Shown here piece after piece: positions 2,148 to 58,164 of a DNA stretch of 64,000 nucleotides. How positions within the stretch are numbered: the stretch's first letter is position 1; each line of letters opens with the position of its first letter. Under the pieces are notes generated by a model, which saw only the letters and a list, made by a program, of their open reading frames with translations, made no database searches and was not told where the DNA came from. A program made the position numbers and the translations under genes. The stretch lies in IMG/VR virus record IMGVR_UViG_3300042291_000844, positions 128,001-192,000 of that record; one strand, given 5' to 3'. Source of the DNA: a virus (taxonomy: Duplodnaviria > Caudoviricetes).

Positions 2148-2179
2148 CAAATATACGAAATATATCTGATAATACCAAA
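2148..2179 (-). promoter_or_regulatory. Bacteroidota-type sigma70 promoter
   Basis: TTTG-N20-TATATTTG upstream of uvsE. Confidence 0.8.
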
Positions 2180-17543: not shown

Positions 17544-17575
17544 TAAAGATACGAAGAATAATTGAATTTTCCAAA
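17544..17575 (-). promoter_or_regulatory. Bacteroidota-type promoter
   Basis: TTTG-N20-TATCTTTA. Confidence 0.7.
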
Positions 17576-22545: not shown

Positions 22546-23661
22546 TTAATGTGAATCTTCTACATTATGTTTTTCTGCAAAGATTAAATAATCTGGGTTA
22601 ATAACTTTTGCAATCTTTTGTCTTTCGCCGGTTTGGTGTTTGATTACAATTCCTTCCTCTGGTACTTTTGTATTTGGAATAAAATTATTGAATGTGTATT
22701 TATCTTGTACTTCTTGTGACCAACTTCCGTAGTGTAAAATTTCTACATAAGGTAATTCCAAAATATCTTTAATCAGTAACCTAGCATTAATAACACTTAA
22801 ATACTCACTATTCTCTTTTACATCGAATCCTACGAACTTAATCTCCGTTAACCCATAATCATATCCCTTTTGGATTCCCGCTCCGTAAATCTCACCATAT
22901 AAGGTAATACCATCACCAATCTCCGGCTCCATTGTATTACTCTTAACATAATCCCACAACTTATTTTTGATATCGTATTTCCTTTCAATATCATACCAAA
23001 CATTGGTATCATAGAATCCTTGAGAATCAGAGCCTTTCTCTACATTATGTGAACCAACTACAAATTCATATTCAGTCCATTTGTTACCAAACAACTTTTT
23101 AATTCTATCTAATATAGATAATTTAGTTTTCTTAACAATACCATAACGAGCATTTGTTCCGTGAATCTTACGAGTAATTTCCACAGTGTCATCTTCAGTA
23201 AACATTCCCGGTACATTTTTTAAGTTAGGAAACTTATAGTAGACATGAAAGTGTGGGTTATCTTGATAACGAATCTTTCTACCACTTGCTAATTGAACCA
23301 TTTTAACTGGTGGTTCATATTTGTAAATACCTAAATAATCCATCATATCATCACCTTCACTAACGATTGGTGTTAACGTATATGGAATAATTAAAGATTC
23401 ACTATAAACTCCTCTTAACTTAACAGTTCTAACCCTACCACCATTACGAAGATAATTGGTTACTCCTAATTTTTCGGATAAATCAAATGGAATTACCGCA
23501 TCGGTTGTTGCACATATTACTAACTCACCAACATTATGAGCATCTTTTTTTACTATACAATTCCAACCACCAACTACTGCTAATTCAATATTATCAGCTC
23601 CTTCGATTGGTTTGATTTCATTTATTGTTGCAACGTAGCAAACTGAATTATTATTTTCCAT
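22546..23661 (-). CDS. RNA ligase (DRB0094/Rnl2-like, N-terminal OB-like domain)
   Basis: I..I.PIEGADNIE; motif I KIHGTN; YGEIYG; FDV; EGIV; AKVI. Confidence 0.9.
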   Translation of the reverse strand: MENNNSVCYVATINEIKPIEGADNIELAVVGGWNCIVKKDAHNVGELVICATTDAVIPFDLSEKLGVTNYLRNGGRVRTVKLRGVYSESLIIPYTLTPIVSEGDDMMDYLGIYKYEPPVKMVQLASGRKIRYQDNPHFHVYYKFPNLKNVPGMFTEDDTVEITRKIHGTNARYGIVKKTKLSILDRIKKLFGNKWTEYEFVVGSHNVEKGSDSQGFYDTNVWYDIERKYDIKNKLWDYVKSNTMEPEIGDGITLYGEIYGAGIQKGYDYGLTEIKFVGFDVKENSEYLSVINARLLIKDILELPYVEILHYGSWSQEVQDKYTFNNFIPNTKVPEEGIVIKHQTGERQKIAKVINPDYLIFAEKHNVEDSH

Positions 23662-26356: not shown

Positions 26357-26388
26357 TAAAGATACGAAGAATATTCCACATATCCAAA
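26357..26388 (-). promoter_or_regulatory. Bacteroidota-type promoter inside the tRNA array
   Basis: TTTG-N20-TATCTTTA. Confidence 0.7.
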
Positions 26389-26389
26389 T

Positions 26390-26851
26390 TTAATTGTGTA
26401 TTTTTACTAAGTGGTCAGCAGCATAAGTTGCTATTGGCCCTAATGATTTATATCTTACTGAATACCCCATACCTTCAACCATACCCACTGCTTGTCTAAA
26501 CACTTCGTTAGATTTAAAGCGTGGGTCTGGGTTCAAGTCAATATCAATCCACTTAGGTTTTGGAATACCAGCCTCGCGTAATTCTTCGGCAGTTTCAATT
26601 GCAAACCAAACTTCTTGTAATAATCTAACTGAACGGATTCTTTCTCTTTCACTATTCCATCTTCTATACAATACATGTGCACCCTTTCCTTTTCTATATA
26701 AGGCAACTACGATTGCATAAATAGTTTTGTTACCTGAATTTTGTGAATCACAACCAATTAAGATTTCTGCATCGGTATTCGTAATCATATATTCTTTGAT
26801 ATATGAAATCAATTCCACTTCTTCTGCCGTATACAATTTTTTATAAACCAT
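26390..26851 (-). CDS. RNase H-like YkuK/DUF458 family protein
   Basis: IGCDSQ, RL..EV..AI..A, IDIDLN, K......AADH. Confidence 0.85.
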   Translation of the reverse strand: MVYKKLYTAEEVELISYIKEYMITNTDAEILIGCDSQNSGNKTIYAIVVALYRKGKGAHVLYRRWNSERERIRSVRLLQEVWFAIETAEELREAGIPKPKWIDIDLNPDPRFKSNEVFRQAVGMVEGMGYSVRYKSLGPIATYAADHLVKIHN

Positions 26852-26955: not shown

Positions 26956-27041
26956 CAGAGAGTGAGGGGCTCGAACCCTCGCGGCTTTAACACCCTAACG
27001 ATTTAGCAAACCGTCCCCTTCACCAACTTGGGTAACTCTCT
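26956..27041 (-). tRNA. tRNA-Ser(GCT)
   Basis: Class II cloverleaf, G73. Confidence 0.95.
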
Positions 27042-27043
27042 AT

Positions 27044-27120
27044 TGGGGTGATTAATGGGATTCGAACCCATACTATCAGTACCACAAACTGACGTGCTGA
27101 CCATTAACACTATAAACACC
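27044..27120 (-). tRNA. tRNA-His(GTG)
   Basis: G-1:C73, CCA encoded. Confidence 0.95.
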
Positions 27121-27126
27121 ATATGT

Positions 27127-27195
27127 TGCGTGTTTGAGGTTTGAACTCAATTGGTCATCCTTATGAGAGATAACTCTTTTCCACTAAGCCACGCA
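27127..27195 (-). tRNA. Divergent tRNA-CAT (Met-like)
   Basis: Loop CTCATAA, good T arm, weak D arm. Confidence 0.55.
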
Positions 27196-27200
27196 ATGTG

Positions 27201-27272
27201 AGGCGGGTATTGGATTCGAACCAATGTTAAAGGTTTTGCAGACCTCCTCCTAACCACTCGAGACAACTCGCC
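27201..27272 (-). tRNA. tRNA-Cys(GCA)
   Basis: Cloverleaf, U73. Confidence 0.95.
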
Positions 27273-27337
27273 ATTATTTGTTGTTCACTTTTTTTGTTTG
27301 TTCACCGATAGTGAACACTCTAAATTTGTGAACATTG

Positions 27338-27410
27338 TAGTTCCATAAGGACTCGAACCCTAACTTTTTCATCCGTAGTGAAAGGTGCTATCCAATTACA
27401 CCATAGAACT
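27338..27410 (-). tRNA. tRNA-Arg(ACG)
   Basis: Cloverleaf. Confidence 0.9.
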
Positions 27411-27416
27411 ATTTTG

Positions 27417-27487
27417 CACCCCCTGAAAGATTCGAACTTTCATCTGCGGTTTTGGAGACCGATATGCTACCATTGCACCAAAGAGAT
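27417..27487 (-). tRNA. tRNA-Trp(CCA)
   Basis: Cloverleaf. Confidence 0.9.
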
Positions 27488-27585
27488 AATTAATCAAGAA
27501 GATAGCCAGAAATTAGTGACGTCAAATCTCTTTAAGCTATATGAACTATCTTCTTGTTAGGATTGGTTAATTACTCCAATCTTCG

Positions 27586-27659
27586 TTGGTAATGCGGGAT
27601 TCGAACCTGCCACCTTCTCGGTATCAGCGAGATGCTCTAACCAAATGAGCTAATTACCA
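27586..27659 (-). tRNA. tRNA-Ile(GAT)
   Basis: Cloverleaf. Confidence 0.95.
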
Positions 27660-27721
27660 ATTTTCCTCACTTCTCCGGCTTATTGGACCGGATGCCATAT
27701 AGGGAGTGTGAGGAAACTCCG

Positions 27722-27797
27722 TAGGGTAAGCAGGATTCGAACCTGCGTGCTCTTCGTCCCAAACGAAGCGAGATAAACCGGACTCCTCTATTACCCT
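27722..27797 (-). tRNA. tRNA-Pro(TGG)
   Basis: Cloverleaf. Confidence 0.95.
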
Positions 27798-27803
27798 ATG
27801 TTG

Positions 27804-27877
27804 TGAACCCGAATGGACTCGAACCATTGACTCCCTCATTAAAAGTGAGGTGCTCTAACCAACTGAGCTACGGATTC
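27804..27877 (-). tRNA. tRNA-Lys(TTT)
   Basis: Cloverleaf. Confidence 0.95.
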
Positions 27878-27882
27878 AATTG

Positions 27883-27955
27883 TGGGACCTAATGGAATCG
27901 AACCATTTCCTTTGGATTTTCAGTCCAACGTACGCACCAGCTATACCAAAGCCCC
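27883..27955 (-). tRNA. tRNA-Phe(GAA)
   Basis: Cloverleaf. Confidence 0.95.
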
Positions 27956-27961
27956 TAATTG

Positions 27962-28043
27962 TGAGAGTAGAAGGACTCGAACCTCCGAACTCGAATGAGA
28001 ACTGATTTACAGTCAGTTGCAATTGCCGCTATGCGATACTCCC
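27962..28043 (-). tRNA. tRNA-Tyr(GTA)
   Basis: Class II cloverleaf. Confidence 0.95.
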
Positions 28044-28048
28044 AATTG

Positions 28049-28122
28049 TAGAAGATATAGGATTCGAACCTATGACCCTTTGGATGTAAACCAAATGCTC
28101 TAACCAACTGAGCTAATCTTCT
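28049..28122 (-). tRNA. tRNA-Val(TAC)
   Basis: Cloverleaf. Confidence 0.95.
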
Positions 28123-28127
28123 ATGTG

Positions 28128-28199
28128 TTACTCGAATAGGATTCGAACCTATACTACATCAGTCAAAGTGAGGTATGCTAACCATTACACCATCGAGCA
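28128..28199 (-). tRNA. tRNA-Gln(TTG)
   Basis: Cloverleaf, U1:A72. Confidence 0.9.
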
Positions 28200-28206
28200 A
28201 TTTATG

Positions 28207-28278
28207 AGCGGATGATAGGAATCGAACCTACGTCTCCTACTTGGAAGGAAGGAGTAATAACCATTATACGACATCCGC
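28207..28278 (-). tRNA. tRNA-Gly(TCC)
   Basis: Cloverleaf. Confidence 0.95.
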
Positions 28279-28280
28279 AT

Positions 28281-28290
28281 GTCAAAGAAC
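28281..28290 (-). promoter_or_regulatory. boxA-like antitermination element GTTCTTTGAC
   Basis: Located after the first tRNA of the array; related copies at 29567, 29881 and 31278. Confidence 0.55.
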
Positions 28291-28296
28291 CAATTG

Positions 28297-28368
28297 AGGG
28301 AAGGGAGAATTTCGAAATCTCGACCTGATGATTAACAGTCATCTGCTCTGCCTCTGAGCTACCATCCC
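28297..28368 (-). tRNA. tRNA-Asn(GTT)
   Basis: Cloverleaf; first tRNA after the terminator. Confidence 0.9.
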
Positions 28369-28374
28369 ATAAAC

Positions 28375-28409
28375 GAAAAAACCCTTAACTTTTTTATCAG
28401 TTAAGGGTT
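28375..28409 (-). terminator. Intrinsic terminator (candidate attenuator) directly before the tRNA array
   Basis: AACCCTTAACT-loop-AGTTAAGGGTT followed by a T tract. Confidence 0.85.
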
Positions 28410-28439
28410 CTTAAAATATTGTTATAAAATTTTTACATT

Positions 28440-28562
28440 CTATCCACGTTTTACATCCCTTAACTTACTTCTATCCTCAATCATATTGAAGACACGATTG
28501 CCACCCCAAGCACATTTCTGTGTCGGTAGATAACTAAGCGTATGTATTGTTAAAGTTGCCAT
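28440..28562 (-). CDS. 40-aa leader peptide containing all 20 amino acids; overlaps antiterminator at 28457-28466
   Basis: MATLTIHTLSYLPTQKCAWGGNRVFNMIEDRSKLRDVKRG; below ORF-track length cutoff. Confidence 0.75.
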   Translation of the reverse strand: MATLTIHTLSYLPTQKCAWGGNRVFNMIEDRSKLRDVKRG

Positions 28563-28721
28563 TGTGTATAAGTATATTAAAAACTAATTTATGTTTGTTT
28601 TTGTGTTAATAAAATAAAAAAAAGTAACTCATCTTCAATATGCACCATCCATGTCATGCACTGGTTGACAAAAGCCTCGATAAATTACTTAATATTTTTT
28701 AAAAAAAAATCTGGATGAGAA

Positions 28722-29570
28722 TACTCCATCTTGTGAACCAGCTTTATAAGGGTTATTGGTTACCTTAATTTCCACTACCTTTTGAGTAGTACCGATTCAA
28801 TGTGGGTAAGTAATGCCTACCAATCATAAAGTTACAACCTACTCTCTTTTTACTCCGCCACTTCGAATCTGCCGACCCGATTCACACCTCGCGATGCTAG
28901 AAGTTTTTCGAAAGAATCACATTTACCTTGAGAGTATTTGTGGCAGTGAACGACTCACTACTATGTACACACCTTTCACTTGCAACTGGTAACCACTTTT
29001 TCTTTTATTTTTATTTGATTTTCACCATTGAAAGTAAAAGTTTTGGTTTGTAGAAGAATTCAAGTAGTGGATTACCACTAGCTCCGTTCCATTTTGAAGA
29101 ACGGAATACTATACTACTCGATACGATATCCCTATCGTCATATTTTAAGTCCACTTCATATCTAAACCTTTGGTAAGGTAAAGATAAGGATAATAACAAC
29201 ACCACTTGTACATCATCTTACCTTTCGATTTTAAGTAAACTTTCATATTGAATCACGCAATGATATGGAGAGATTAAGTCCGTACTTCTTGCAATAACTC
29301 TATGGATTATTCTTATTGGTGTCCCCACCTCAACTGAACTTCTACCTAGCCCAGTCATTAAACCATTTCACTACGGAGTTACCCTCACTAATCAGGTCTA
29401 ATGATATTCCACTTGCATACTCAAGCTCCATTCCTTTCGGTCTGAAACCGCAAATTAATTAACCAACTAATTCACTTTATCCTACTTTCGTAGTTTATTT
29501 AACCACCATATGCGGCGGGTATGTACTATGTACCACAAGGATACTATGTACAATATGTTTCGATAATTTA
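28722..29570 (-). ncRNA. Large ornate ncRNA, GOLLD-like (~850 nt)
   Basis: No credible ORF, many hairpins, raised GC, own promoter and boxA, adjacent to tRNAs; family assigned by size and context only. Confidence 0.55.
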
Positions 29571-29591
29571 AAGAACTTTTTTTTGTTAAGT

Positions 29592-29623
29592 CAAAGATAC
29601 GAAATCTTTTTCACTTTTCCAAA
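29592..29623 (-). promoter_or_regulatory. Bacteroidota-type promoter for the large ncRNA
   Basis: TTTG-N20-TATCTTTG. Confidence 0.8.
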
Positions 29624-29697
29624 TTTATTTTAAACTTTTTTTTGTTATGTCTAATACCGAGTATCTTTCATCGCCTTTAAGTTTAGAACTAACTTTG

Positions 29698-29729
29698 TAA
29701 AGATACGAAAACATTTTCACATTTCCAAA
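29698..29729 (-). promoter_or_regulatory. Bacteroidota-type promoter
   Basis: TTTG-N20-TATCTTTA. Confidence 0.75.
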
Positions 29730-29801
29730 TCTTTTTTTAATTATTTTTTGTGATATTATATATAAGTATATAAAAATATACCAAACGTAAAATAATCATT
29801 G

Positions 29802-29873
29802 TAGCGGGTGAAGGATTCGAACCTCCGACCTATAGGTTATGAGCCTACCGAGCTACCACTGCTCTAACCCGCA
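29802..29873 (-). tRNA. tRNA-fMet(CAT), initiator-like
   Basis: 1:72 mismatch, TAGAGCAGTGGTAGCTCG D arm, loop CTCATAA. Confidence 0.9.
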
Positions 29874-29894
29874 ATATAATTTTAAAGAACATAA

Positions 29895-30000
29895 AACAAA
29901 GTAAGATAATGATATCCGGCGTTATAGTTTACCACTTATGGTTGGACTTCACACATTCGGTTTTATTAGATGTTGGCTTCAACCACTATCTTATTTTGTT
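29895..30000 (-). ncRNA. ~106 nt rod-like RNA, 6S-like candidate
   Basis: 16 of 17 pairs in the closing stem; begins immediately after a promoter. Confidence 0.45.
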
Positions 30001-30004
30001 AAGT

Positions 30005-30036
30005 CAAAGATACGAAAACATTTTCATATTTCCAAA
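30005..30036 (-). promoter_or_regulatory. Bacteroidota-type promoter
   Basis: TTTG-N20-TATCTTTG. Confidence 0.8.
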
Positions 30037-30049
30037 TCTTTTTTAATAT

Positions 30050-30496
30050 TTATTTTACTTTGTAAGATAATCCCAATCCTAATGTAAAATCATCACCAAT
30101 TAAATTACCAATTCCCCATAAATTTATAACACTACTTGGTCTTAGTGGATTGTACATTATAAGAAAATTTGGTTTATTACCATTAAGTGTAGGTTGTAAT
30201 CCAAACCCAATAATCGCCTTATCCTCTTTTACTTGTCTAAGAACACCAAACTTCATATTATCAGATACATTTCCTGTTTTGGTATTAACTCCCGGAGGAA
30301 TTACAATTCCACCATTTTGTCCACCATATTCACCATACGGAAGTCCCGCATAAAATCCCCATCCTTTTTTCATAAATCCACCTGTAATATATCCATCAGA
30401 TGGTCCACCCTTGCGGGTAGCGGTTATAAACCACTCTTGCCCTTTTGCAGTAATACTTATTCCGAGTATTAAAGCCATCACTAATAATTTTTTCAT
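30050..30496 (-). CDS. Secreted, outer-membrane beta-barrel-like protein
   Basis: Signal peptide (AKG-QE); alternating beta strands; ends LGLSYKVK. Confidence 0.6.
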   Translation of the reverse strand: MKKLLVMALILGISITAKGQEWFITATRKGGPSDGYITGGFMKKGWGFYAGLPYGEYGGQNGGIVIPPGVNTKTGNVSDNMKFGVLRQVKEDKAIIGFGLQPTLNGNKPNFLIMYNPLRPSSVINLWGIGNLIGDDFTLGLGLSYKVK

Positions 30497-30807
30497 AGTG
30501 CCTTTACGCTCTTTGTTTTTTCAAGAGAATCCTCTCTTGCCCATTTTTGTTTTAAAATATCTATTTTTTTAATTGTTAGGATTTTACCTTTAAGTGAGGC
30601 AATCTCCTTCGAAACCTTTTCGGTCCGAACCGTGCGTGCAGCGAAATCATCTTCGGTGATTTCAATCAATTCTTTTTTTCGATTAAGAACTGATATTTCC
30701 TTTTGGATTTTTTCTACCGCTTTACCATCATTAATCAATGAAGGGTCGATAGAATTACCAATACTATTAAAAAATAATAATATGGGTAAGGTAAGTTTTT
30801 CTAACAT
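30493..30807 (-). CDS. Coiled-coil hypothetical protein
   Basis: ORF track. Confidence 0.6.
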   Translation of the reverse strand: MLEKLTLPILLFFNSIGNSIDPSLINDGKAVEKIQKEISVLNRKKELIEITEDDFAARTVRTEKVSKEIASLKGKILTIKKIDILKQKWAREDSLEKTKSVKAL

Positions 30808-30890
30808 TTGTAATCAATAGTTAAAAGTGTAACACATATAAATACATTATTATATATTTTTAATTAAATATATAACAATAATTTATTAAG

Positions 30891-31266
30891 TGGTGGAGGT
30901 GGAGGGAGTCGAACCCTCGTCCAAATACGGATTTAATAAACTTCATTCACAAGCTTAGTTAGTTTTTCTTAACTAACAAAATATTCGGTTGGTTCTTCAC
31001 CATCGGCAACCGATAAACAATAGGTGATTCGATTTTGGGTTCAATCACTTTTCTACCTTTGTACACATTCTTTTTAAAGTCCCACGATGTGTGCGGGAGG
31101 GATTAGGCTGCTATAGCGTAATCAGCACCAACGAAAGACATTACATCTTCGAAGGTCATTGTAGATAATTCTACGTCGTTTATTGTTCGATAGGTATTTA
31201 CGGATTTCCATCTAACCCGGCTTGCAACTTACCAACTCATCGTACCTGTCAAAACCAGGCACCCCC
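30891..31266 (-). ncRNA. ssrA: tmRNA
   Basis: 5' GGGGGTGCCTGGTTTTGACAGG, G3:U70, 3' GGTTCGACTCCC...ACCA; internal tag ORF 31103-31177 ending YAIAA. Confidence 0.95.
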
Positions 31267-31268
31267 AT

Positions 31269-31955
31269 TTATTTTTTATTCAAAGAACGTTTAATTAAAT
31301 TCTGAACCTTTTCATTTCTCAAATCAATATACAACATTATAGTTGCCCGATATTCATTTGAGTAATTATACACATTATGATAATGATATGAATTAAAATA
31401 ATATGCTTTACCTACTTCTAATCTTTTTCTAAATATATTCTTAAACCAATCGGGTCTATGAAATCTCTTCCACCATTTAAACTCTGCGGAATCTACTACA
31501 CAATATTCAAACTTTTCTGGTACTATAATTGGAATTTGAATTGTCAGTTCCCACTCCTCTTGCCCGTGTTCTAATACATGCGAGTGCCAAACTAAAGATT
31601 GTTTAGGTGCGATTCGCATCACCCTAGCTCTACTATCTAATTGGTTACCACTAATGTTTGCACATATCTCATACATATAAGGTACTATCGATTTCAATTC
31701 AGTTTTCTGAAAGTCGTATTGTTCCGTACCATCTTCGTACATATCTTTATACAAACTTCCATCGGAACTAATCAATGATATCCCACTCCATGCTTTACGA
31801 TACTTTCTTCGTACTTGCCAAAAGTTAGTTCTATAATCTTTGAATTTGTATTTGTTTTTTAACAACCCATATTCATCAATTAATTTATCTAAATCAATAT
31901 CAATGTCCAATTCTAAAAATGGAATACTTTTTAGTTGTTGTATAAGTTCATTCAT
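31269..31955 (-). CDS. Asp/Asn beta-hydroxylase-like cupin oxygenase
   Basis: RARVMRI.P...WHSH...IQIPI; HNVYN...R; start moved to MNELIQ because the ORF-track extension lies in a tRNA. Confidence 0.75.
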   Translation of the reverse strand: MNELIQQLKSIPFLELDIDIDLDKLIDEYGLLKNKYKFKDYRTNFWQVRRKYRKAWSGISLISSDGSLYKDMYEDGTEQYDFQKTELKSIVPYMYEICANISGNQLDSRARVMRIAPKQSLVWHSHVLEHGQEEWELTIQIPIIVPEKFEYCVVDSAEFKWWKRFHRPDWFKNIFRKRLEVGKAYYFNSYHYHNVYNYSNEYRATIMLYIDLRNEKVQNLIKRSLNKK

Positions 31956-35120: not shown

Positions 35121-36917
35121 TTATTTACTTAATTCCAACTGTCTTTGTAATAATTCTGCTGCTTCCTTTTCTTTCATTTGTTCTTCGTGTAATTCTTGAT
35201 ATAAGCCTCTATTGTAAATAGAATATGGAATACCTATTTTTTTAAATGATGCTTCAATCTTTTCTAATCTATCTAATCTATCTTTTGGTGTATTATATTT
35301 AGTTGAAAAATTTACACCATTTATATATTCAATCCATTCTTTCTCAGTATCTCTCCATCTAATTAATAAAGGTTGATGTATTAAAAATGCAGAACACGTT
35401 AAAATTTCAGACATAACATCATGATATTCCTCTACAAAATCTACGGTCTGCTGGAAATCTTCTTCAGTCTCATTTAGGTATCCAATAATTAATTGCATTG
35501 CAAACATTAGAGGATATTCGTTTTCTTTATTAATTTGTCTAACATTTTCAAAAATTTGTCTTACCCCATCCATATCGGTATACTTCTTCATATGTTCTAA
35601 TACCGGCTCAGAAGCAGATTCAAATCCTGTAATCATTTTCATTAATCCGGCTTGACGATATAATCGCATCGTATCGATATCTCGCATAATAGATTGTAAT
35701 CTCATATTACCACCCCAAGTGATTCCACCTAATCCACCCCAACCTTTTTCAATAATTCTTTCACAAAAAGTTCTTAACCATTTTGCATTACCATTAATAA
35801 TACTATCATGACAAAAGAAATTTGTTCTGCCTTTATTAATCCAATATTCAATTTCATCAATTACGTTTTCAATATTACGATAACGGAATTCTGGTATGAA
35901 ATCTGGTACTGAACAAAATGAACATCTATAAGGACAACCCCTACTCATTACTAATGGCACATTATGTTGATATACCGATTTATAATAATAGTTATCTTCT
36001 AAGGATGAGTAATCAGGGAATGGTAGTAAATTCATATCCACATTTGCACGAGTAGAGTTATGGATAAGAACTCCATTTAATCTCCAAACAATTCCTTTTA
36101 TTTTTAAAAGTGATTCCTCACTCATATCAGATTTTAGAATTTCAACAAACGTTACTTCACCATCACCTCTAGATATTATATCTATGAAATGATAATCATG
36201 TGTTTTATAATTTGAATTTGGTAATTTACCAAAATCTAATACTTCTACCCCATTACCACCTAAAAGAATTTTAACGTGTGGATATTTTTCTTTAACCAAT
36301 CTTGCTATAGCTAATGAGGCATCTATATTACCATCAATGATACTAAATCCGATAAACGCCGGATTTGCTTTTTCAATATACCTACCCACATATCCATACG
36401 CCATATCATAAATTTCTTTATGATTATATAGGAGTTCATATTGCCCTTGTTTTGAATAAGTGTTAAATAGATTAAAAAACTCACTTCCTTTATCAGGGGG
36501 ATTCAAAAAGAAATAATCTATAATAGGGTCTATGATTGCGACTCTTAAATCTGGATGAAATTTATCTATATATGATTTCAATCCAACAATACCGGAGTAA
36601 TAACCTGATTCATTTATATTTGGTACTTGCAATAATAAACAATCTTGTTCCTCAATATCTTCAAATAAAAATTTATGTTGAACTTCGATATGACTATTAA
36701 CTGCAATGTTTTGTTGACGGATGTATTGTAAAAGGTCAACCTTTACATCCATAACAGCCTTACCACTTTCTATTTGTTCTTTTAACCGCTTTTCGGTTTT
36801 TTTTATCTCCTCTTCAGACATATATATTTTATAATTACCATTTACCAATTGGACATTGAGAACCGCGAGATAGTGTTTTTGCTGATATGTTACAACCACA
36901 ACCAAACTTTCGTTCAC
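35121..36917 (-). CDS. B12-binding-domain radical SAM protein (true start probably MSEEEI)
   Basis: IGFS, ILLGG, GDGE, P.PDY, SRGCPYRCSFC, FCHDS, GFESAS, IIGY. Confidence 0.9.
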   Translation of the reverse strand: MNESLVVVVTYQQKHYLAVLNVQLVNGNYKIYMSEEEIKKTEKRLKEQIESGKAVMDVKVDLLQYIRQQNIAVNSHIEVQHKFLFEDIEEQDCLLLQVPNINESGYYSGIVGLKSYIDKFHPDLRVAIIDPIIDYFFLNPPDKGSEFFNLFNTYSKQGQYELLYNHKEIYDMAYGYVGRYIEKANPAFIGFSIIDGNIDASLAIARLVKEKYPHVKILLGGNGVEVLDFGKLPNSNYKTHDYHFIDIISRGDGEVTFVEILKSDMSEESLLKIKGIVWRLNGVLIHNSTRANVDMNLLPFPDYSSLEDNYYYKSVYQHNVPLVMSRGCPYRCSFCSVPDFIPEFRYRNIENVIDEIEYWINKGRTNFFCHDSIINGNAKWLRTFCERIIEKGWGGLGGITWGGNMRLQSIMRDIDTMRLYRQAGLMKMITGFESASEPVLEHMKKYTDMDGVRQIFENVRQINKENEYPLMFAMQLIIGYLNETEEDFQQTVDFVEEYHDVMSEILTCSAFLIHQPLLIRWRDTEKEWIEYINGVNFSTKYNTPKDRLDRLEKIEASFKKIGIPYSIYNRGLYQELHEEQMKEKEAAELLQRQLELSK

Positions 36918-42522: not shown

Positions 42523-42554
42523 CAAATATACGAATAAAAATCGGTATTTCCAAA
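42523..42554 (-). promoter_or_regulatory. Bacteroidota-type promoter
   Basis: TTTG-N20-TATATTTG. Confidence 0.8.
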
Positions 42555-45546: not shown

Positions 45547-45578
45547 TAAAGATACGAAATAACTTTGGTAATACCAAA
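45547..45578 (-). promoter_or_regulatory. Bacteroidota-type promoter
   Basis: TTTG-N20-TATCTTTA. Confidence 0.75.
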
Positions 45579-53238: not shown

Positions 53239-53270
53239 CAAAGATACGAAAAGTATTCCATATTTCCAAA
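53239..53270 (-). promoter_or_regulatory. Bacteroidota-type promoter
   Basis: TTTG-N20-TATCTTTG. Confidence 0.8.
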
Positions 53271-56071: not shown

Positions 56072-56103
56072 TAAAGATACGACAATTATTTGATACTACC
56101 AAA
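56072..56103 (-). promoter_or_regulatory. Bacteroidota-type promoter
   Basis: TTTG-N20-TATCTTTA. Confidence 0.75.
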
Positions 56104-58132: not shown

Positions 58133-58164
58133 TAAAGGTACGGAAAAAAATCCACATTTCCAAA
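58133..58164 (-). promoter_or_regulatory. Bacteroidota-type promoter
   Basis: TTTG-N20-TACCTTTA. Confidence 0.65.

Follow-up and report, generated by a model that had tools for sequence, protein, structure and literature searches.

A full-length GOLLD RNA gene behind a boxA-like leader among the tRNA genes of a freshwater giant phage

A tract of about 850 nt (28722-29570) stands out in a phage-like stretch of 64 kb, in which almost every long ORF is encoded on the minus strand; this whole stretch is called the window below. What does the tract encode, and by what kind of transcription is it made? The initial annotation had considered either a member of the GOLLD family or a new giant RNA class. 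GOLLD RNAs, of ~850 bases, are among the few natural RNAs that form a large protein-free cage. As had been proposed, the tract was examined with Infernal, and the window was scanned against all families of Rfam 15. GOLLD (RF02032) was matched at 28712..29121 on the minus strand with 264.9 bits, compared with a gathering score of 150 (E 2e-74), and the match covered model positions 1-416 of 416 without truncation. It was the single large-RNA match in the 64-kb window; ROOL, OLE and group I/II introns gave no match in the whole window or in a permissive pass. Judged from its sequence, the locus is a full-length GOLLD RNA gene on the minus strand and a member of the known RF02032 family, and no evidence contradicting this membership was found. 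The first of the two options was thereby borne out. The interval had been placed correctly, with its 3' end drawn slightly short of the Rfam match, which reaches 28712. The raised GC content was also confirmed, at 0.36-0.39 across the RNA and 0.26-0.31 in the flanks.

The Rfam GOLLD model describes the conserved 3' half only, and the other ~450 nt of the interval were analysed separately. Within the universally conserved 3' domain (28712..29121, minus strand), an A-rich variable linker was located at approximately 28990..29060 (minus strand), unpaired at Rfam model positions ~62-136, in which no embedded tRNA was found. A hairpin equivalent to P21a/L21a (28884..28897, minus strand) carries the loop CGCGAG with a self-complementary GC/CG dinucleotide. 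The stem of this hairpin covaries, and the loop dinucleotide was GC in 27 and CG in 4 of 31 sequences. Among the hairpins that had been picked out by eye, UUCCGUUC/GAACGGAA corresponds to a helix in the Rfam GOLLD model, and both CUAC-GAAA-GUAG (29496..29485) and GACGAUA/UAUCGU (29141..29121) were recovered in the consensus structure, where they covary. The pairing of AGTAGTGG with CCACTA was not supported, as the CCACUACUU strand pairs with an upstream GAGUAGU strand in the family consensus.

The 5' domain was assigned to 29122..29520 (minus strand) from alignments, covariation and sequence blocks in common with the env-38 GOLLD, whose 5' domain forms the 'cap' of the cage. In a distant DNA search, two records from uncultured phages (642 kb and 635 kb), both with a GOLLD match of their own, showed similarity to the window starting ~400 nt upstream of the Rfam match. 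The three sequences could be aligned end to end, with compensatory changes visible. By means of an invariant 16-mer of this three-way alignment, 52 loci were obtained from IMG/VR, in 41 of which the element was found by nhmmer; after removal of duplicates, 31 distinct full-length sequences were left, that is, the window and 30 homologues. These homologues were 58-85% identical to the window, and many of them resided on contigs of 200-480 kb, the IMG/VR contigs reaching 483 kb and the phage records 635-642 kb. All 17 homologous loci examined exceeded the GOLLD threshold (232-300 bits). When 185,579 species genomes were searched for a 21-mer taken from the 5' domain, none matched.

The 5'-domain consensus calculated with RNAalifold contained 104 pairs, 70 of which showed changes on both sides. 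Standard pairs occupied 97.9% of the pair cells, compared with 80.9% (sd 0.4) after column shuffling and 37-41% when the 3' partner was slid by 1-3 columns. The 70 pairs with compensatory changes exceeded the shuffle mean of 47 and the shuffle maximum of 56, a comparison in which the kinship of the sequences overstates significance; the slid-partner control is free of that weakness. Covarying homologues, on which the initial annotation had made its reading depend, were therefore present. Its statement that no credible ORF exists also stood: the longest ORF is 64 aa, and its frame has stops in 22 of the 30 homologues. Taken together, the covarying fold and the broken ORF indicate that the 5' half is a conserved structured RNA and not a protein gene. 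Ahead of the core, a variable peripheral hairpin was predicted by folding at 29522..29552 (minus strand). It is replaced by a differing hairpin or a gap in homologues, and is missing from the shorter homologues and from the env-38 construct.

Next to its last conserved hairpin the RNA gene has a U9 tract (28701..28709, minus strand), which begins 2 nt after that hairpin and probably marks the 3' end of the transcript, as far as can be judged from the letters. The terminal hairpin covaries among homologues. A convincing intrinsic terminator formed by this hairpin and the U9 tract was considered and rejected, as the folding energy of -5.2 kcal/mol (z 0.65) was no better than that of shuffled sequences. 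In many homologues a tRNA begins 5-15 nt past GOLLD, implying that processing may set the 3' end there. With a transcription start predicted at ~29586, a few nt downstream of the proximal promoter described below, the primary transcript would extend from ~29586 to ~28701, and the core from 29520 to 28712 (~810 nt).

Two promoters of Bacteroidota type were recognized upstream of the gene by pattern. The distal one (29698..29729, minus strand) has the form TTTGG-N20-TATCTTTA and aligns with six other cassettes of the window; the proximal one (29592..29623, minus strand) has the form TTTGG-N20-TATCTTTG, and its cassette precedes GOLLD in most homologues. In the homologue alignment the conserved cassette was seen as ATTTGG, 20 nt and TATCTTTG upstream of GOLLD. 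The combination of TTTG (-33) and TAnnTTTG (-7) is the Bacteroidota housekeeping promoter form. The pattern TTTG-N19-21-TAnnTTTR was found at 18 sites of the window, where 6.3 were expected, and 12 of the 18 were on the coding (minus) strand and had a common extended consensus. TTTG/TAnnTTTG is therefore the general host-type promoter of the phage. The sigma-70 -35/-10 pattern was tried as well and rejected (7 sites, 7.4 expected by chance). The promoter at 29592 in the initial annotation was hence correct in place (29623..29592), and its type was revised from sigma-70 to Bacteroidota -33/-7. It was also observed that the cassette, as TTTGG-N20-T(A/C)nnTTT(G/A) with the TTCGTATCTTT core in common, precedes protein genes. 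Examples among the 12 minus-strand sites, identified by pattern, are 2179..2148, 17575..17544, 26388..26357 and 42554..42523, and further ones are 45578..45547, 53270..53239, 56103..56072 and 58164..58133 (minus strand). The recurrence of this sequence pattern suggests that the host is a member of the Bacteroidota and that the phage relies widely on the host sigma factor.

Between the proximal promoter and the RNA core, the boxA-like element reported at the 5' end was present as GTTCTTTAAA at 29576..29567 (minus strand), 15 nt downstream of the proximal -7 box and unpaired in the consensus fold. It is one of only three matches to GTTCTTTRAA in the 64 kb. All three are on the minus strand, each just 5' of the tmRNA, tRNA-Met or GOLLD: a second GTTCTTTAAA lies at 29890..29881, 7 nt before the mature 5' end of tRNA-Met(CAT) (29801..29873, minus strand), and GTTCTTTGAA lies at 31288..31279, 12 nt before the mature 5' end of the phage tmRNA further upstream (30891..31266, minus strand). 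The element was kept in 30 of the 31 homologues. Compared with the published boxA consensus GYTCTTTAANA (PMC5725501), GTTCTTTAAA(T) of GOLLD agrees at 10 of 11 positions and the tRNA-Met copy GTTCTTTAAAA at 11 of 11. The GOLLD element also resembles AUGAUCUUUGAAA, the NusB-binding boxA of B. subtilis rrn operons (PMC13753749). A pairing of boxA with a GAAG that is conserved close to where the 5' domain ends was considered and rejected, since this GAAG pairs with a covarying CUU (alignment columns 392-394).

The element was then compared with rRNA leaders of Bacteroidota, the presumed host phylum as judged from the promoter type. Bacteroidota 16S loci were fetched via a 16S signature 18-mer, and 59 of them had a leader of at least 300 nt. 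Of these 59 loci, 51 had the relaxed motif G[TCA]TC[TA]T[TA][AG]A in the 300 nt that precede 16S, at a median position of -121, whereas control sequence gave 4 matches in 159,582 nt. The resemblance is not confined to the core, with GTTC(T/A)TTGAAAATATTGAA as the host form and GTTCTTTGAAAATATTGAAAA in several of the phage copies. In rrn operons the leader consists of tandem promoters followed by boxA, on which an antitermination complex of NusB, S10, NusG, NusA and SuhB is built (PMC5725501, PMC13753749, PMC6614797). The GOLLD leader likewise has two tandem host-type promoters and a boxA-like element ahead of a long structured untranslated RNA, and the occurrence of boxA before each of the three stable RNAs of the window is like the leader and spacer boxA of rrn operons. 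The difference is that the cargo is a phage RNA instead of rRNA; the likeness is one of sequence and position. These similarities are read most economically as imitation of the host rrn leader by the phage, and GOLLD is probably made via host rRNA-style (Nus) antitermination. No literature linking GOLLD with boxA was found, and a literature search for the motif letters returned primers alone.

In two homologous loci, L002 (2880-2960; 635-kb phage LR745206) and L014 (483-kb IMG/VR contig), a tRNA was seen directly preceding GOLLD, with no promoter between the two; a small hairpin, AGAGTTACTC-AACG-GAGTAAC, is followed by boxA. This order of hairpin and boxA recalls, by analogy, the boxB-boxA order of rrn leaders.

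As a whole, the best explanation of the locus would be a minus-strand GOLLD gene with host-type promoters and a boxA leader that specifies a cage-forming RNA, to which we give a probability of about 0.95. Under this explanation, host RNA polymerase with the Bacteroidota housekeeping sigma factor would initiate at the two tandem -33/-7 promoters, and boxA in the nascent leader would load host NusB/S10. The polymerase might then turn resistant to Rho and pausing, as on rRNA operons, during synthesis of the long untranslated RNA; the boxA would repeat ahead of every RNA excised from the precursor. The RNA would fold into a 5' 'cap' and a 3' 'ring' domain, and fourteen copies may assemble into a D7 cage as in env-38. 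By analogy with rRNA operons and env-38, it seems highly probable that an RNA cage is made here through host rRNA-type transcription.

The main rival to the Nus-loading reading concerns the meaning of GTTCTTTRAA, which could instead belong to a promoter used by a phage-specific factor, or serve in stable-RNA precursors as a signal for RNase processing or recognition, in particular the latter. We consider this possible, at clearly less than even odds. The motif lies just 7 nt (tRNA-Met) and 12 nt (tmRNA) before mature 5' ends, which is where a processing signal might be sought. Leader cleavage by RNase P occurs at the mature 5' ends of tRNA and tmRNA, and we know of no binding or antitermination data for any Bacteroidota boxA. 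On the other hand, GTTCTTTRAA matches published boxA consensus sequences (PMC5725501, PMC13753749), and the relaxed form recurs upstream of 16S in the great majority of the rRNA loci mentioned above (51/59, median -121). The promoter version fits poorly in addition: the motif does not conform to the -7 box TAnnTTTG, and the real -7 box is found 15 nt before it. In L002 and L014, moreover, boxA follows the tRNA and hairpin with no promoter in between, suggesting that boxA is kept as part of the transcript. The Nus-loading reading was preferred.

Is the RNA made? To address expression, sequence libraries were searched with 28380-29900, of which GOLLD makes up ~0.56. About 0.9 of the query words were present in 14 lake-water DNA runs, and 0.45-0.57 of them in six metatranscriptome runs from six studies. 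The region 27000-31500 was then compared with the assembled contigs of three RNA runs, each from a different lake study, and of a single DNA run. In all three RNA libraries, 28777-29497 was covered by contigs that differed at 0-4 positions. In the three RNA runs, the depth of the GOLLD contig was ~100-1860, compared with 2-15 over adjacent DNA, and in the DNA run it was 15-24 throughout; contig depth is one figure per contig and a poor measure, and the runs had been chosen for containing 28380-29900. These contigs and depths support expression of GOLLD. As for the discrete transcript that the initial annotation had expected, the sequence is present in RNA libraries of three studies, as seen at the level of contigs. 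The stops of the RNA contigs at ~28777 and ~29497 were considered as RNA ends and rejected, for contigs of the DNA run break there too and the stops are assembly breaks. The poor or absent coverage of the flanks in the RNA runs was likewise discounted as evidence, depth being one figure per contig.

One joint, 29224>29473, which omits 248 nt of the 5' domain and has undetermined letters at the junction, was seen both in a contig of an RNA run (depth 772) and in a contig of the DNA run. It probably reflects a related phage with a diverged middle part, a shorter GOLLD variant being possible.

A decaying or silent GOLLD relic, or a hidden small protein gene, would be a quite different account of the tract, and several ORFs of 30-64 aa can indeed be drawn on both strands. 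We regard it as very improbable. The longest of these ORFs is broken in most homologues, the model match is full-length and untruncated, relatives preserve 97.9% of the consensus pairs, and near-identical contigs occur in RNA libraries of three studies.

The env-38 GOLLD (JCVI_SCAF_1096627009515/1239-410) has been solved by cryo-EM as a 14-mer D7 nanocage (Kretsch et al. 2025, PMC12286853). Each chain has a 5' 'cap' domain, a 3' 'ring' domain and a disordered interior linker, and the chains are held together by nine inter-chain bridges, of which B8 is a symmetric L21a kissing loop with a central dinucleotide that alternates between GC and CG (PMC12286853). The sequence of the env-38 construct was taken from the supplement of PMC12286853 and compared with the window block by block. 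Its first residues correspond to window 29520, so that the construct is without boxA and without the 29552..29522 hairpin. Three blocks of the 5' domain were colinear in the window: an exact 20-mer at 29492..29473, a block with 3 mismatches in 28 at 29429..29402, and one with 3 mismatches in 21 at 29206..29186. A fourth env-38 block had no match within 3 mismatches in the window, and two env-38-specific patterns gave no match in IMG/VR. Both RNAs belong to the same Rfam family and have the two-domain layout, an A-rich linker and a self-complementary L21a dinucleotide, the linker of the window being the counterpart of the disordered interior linker in the solved env-38 cage (PMC12286853). Both also lie downstream of tRNA-Met in tRNA-rich surroundings. 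The window differs from env-38 in its extra variable hairpin and boxA leader, and its sequence is substantially different. The GC/CG L21a loop and its covarying stem are consistent with cage formation without proving it, and a 14-copy cage for the window RNA would be carried over from env-38 by analogy.

With these blocks the second option of the initial annotation could be rejected: size and phage context, and an Rfam model that spans the 3' half only, would leave room for a new giant RNA class resembling GOLLD, or for ROOL, OLE or a group I/II intron, yet the chance of this is practically negligible given the RF02032 match, a permissive Rfam search of 28350-29810 that returned GOLLD and otherwise rox2 alone by chance (28.8 bits against a threshold of 55), and a 5' half with colinear blocks in common with env-38. 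ROOL, which is found in phages and prophages and forms an 8-mer cage of RNA alone (PMC12286853), resembles the window GOLLD in being a large phage RNA of ornate structure located near tRNA genes. It is unrelated to it in sequence and secondary structure, and no Rfam ROOL match exists in the window.

In the family description, 5' regions differ and are less conserved (PMC12286853). GOLLD of Lactobacillales prophages, the expression of which rises during phage lysis according to work cited in PMC12286853, has the same conserved 3' domain as the window and a similar phage location near tRNA genes; the window differs in belonging to a freshwater giant phage with Bacteroidota-type promoters. No relevant paper was found in the literature on GOLLD together with huge phages, and for the function of GOLLD since 2024 nothing was found beyond structural work. 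The present data indicate that giant freshwater phages whose promoters are of Bacteroidota type carry env-type GOLLD, and that the window GOLLD is present in lake RNA libraries and lies behind a leader resembling those of host rRNA operons. The window copy itself adds little to the GOLLD family; the rRNA-style leader is the sole feature that was not found in print, and it offers a concrete experimental handle through Nus-factor dependence and the timing of synthesis.

The surroundings of the gene are rich in other stable RNAs. The window contains 24 tRNA genes and a tmRNA, all on the same strand as GOLLD. All 15 homologous loci considered in this respect were located among tRNA genes, with the tmRNA upstream of GOLLD in 4 of the 15 and downstream in a fifth. 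A phage RNA ligase (22546-23661, minus strand; phrog_968, E 2e-57; Pfam RNA_ligase and OB-fold domain) abuts the tRNA array, and an RNaseH-like ORF (26390-26851, minus strand; PF04308) lies inside it. The domain matches of these two genes suggest a module for tRNA repair and maintenance. With tRNAs, tmRNA and RNA-repair genes as constant neighbours, our best guess for the role of GOLLD would be in phage takeover or protection of translation, and confidence that the cage is tied to the phage translation module is low. A more elaborate proposal is rather improbable: a phage 'stable-RNA operon' (tmRNA, tRNA-fMet, GOLLD and 22 tRNAs), with GOLLD as its central member, would be transcribed with host Nus/boxA, and the GOLLD cage would act in translation takeover, e.g. 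by storing or shielding phage tRNAs or engaging ribosomes, amid host anticodon nucleases and stress responses.

Several minor observations were made around the gene. The space separating GOLLD from the tRNA array (28377-28562, minus strand) is taken up by a 40-codon ORF (28562..28440) and, after it, a hairpin of 14 bp that ends in a U-run (28412..28377). The initial annotation had the 3' end of the RNA pointing into a leader/attenuator there, a relation of position. Upstream, between a promoter at 30036..30005 and the boxA of tRNA-Met, the 110 nt of 29891-30000 (minus strand) were predicted to fold into a long rod of -24.5 kcal/mol (z -3.1), and 3 of 200 shuffles folded equally well. The tmRNA (30891..31266) encodes a 24-residue tag ending in AIAA, and its boxA-like element falls within the 3'-terminal part of a 241-aa ORF that weakly matches Asp/Asn hydroxylase. 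One contig of an RNA run, with high depth, covered part of the tmRNA with ~9% differences. Further upstream, at 35121-36917 (minus strand), a 598-aa protein with B12-binding and radical-SAM domains was identified by domain matches.
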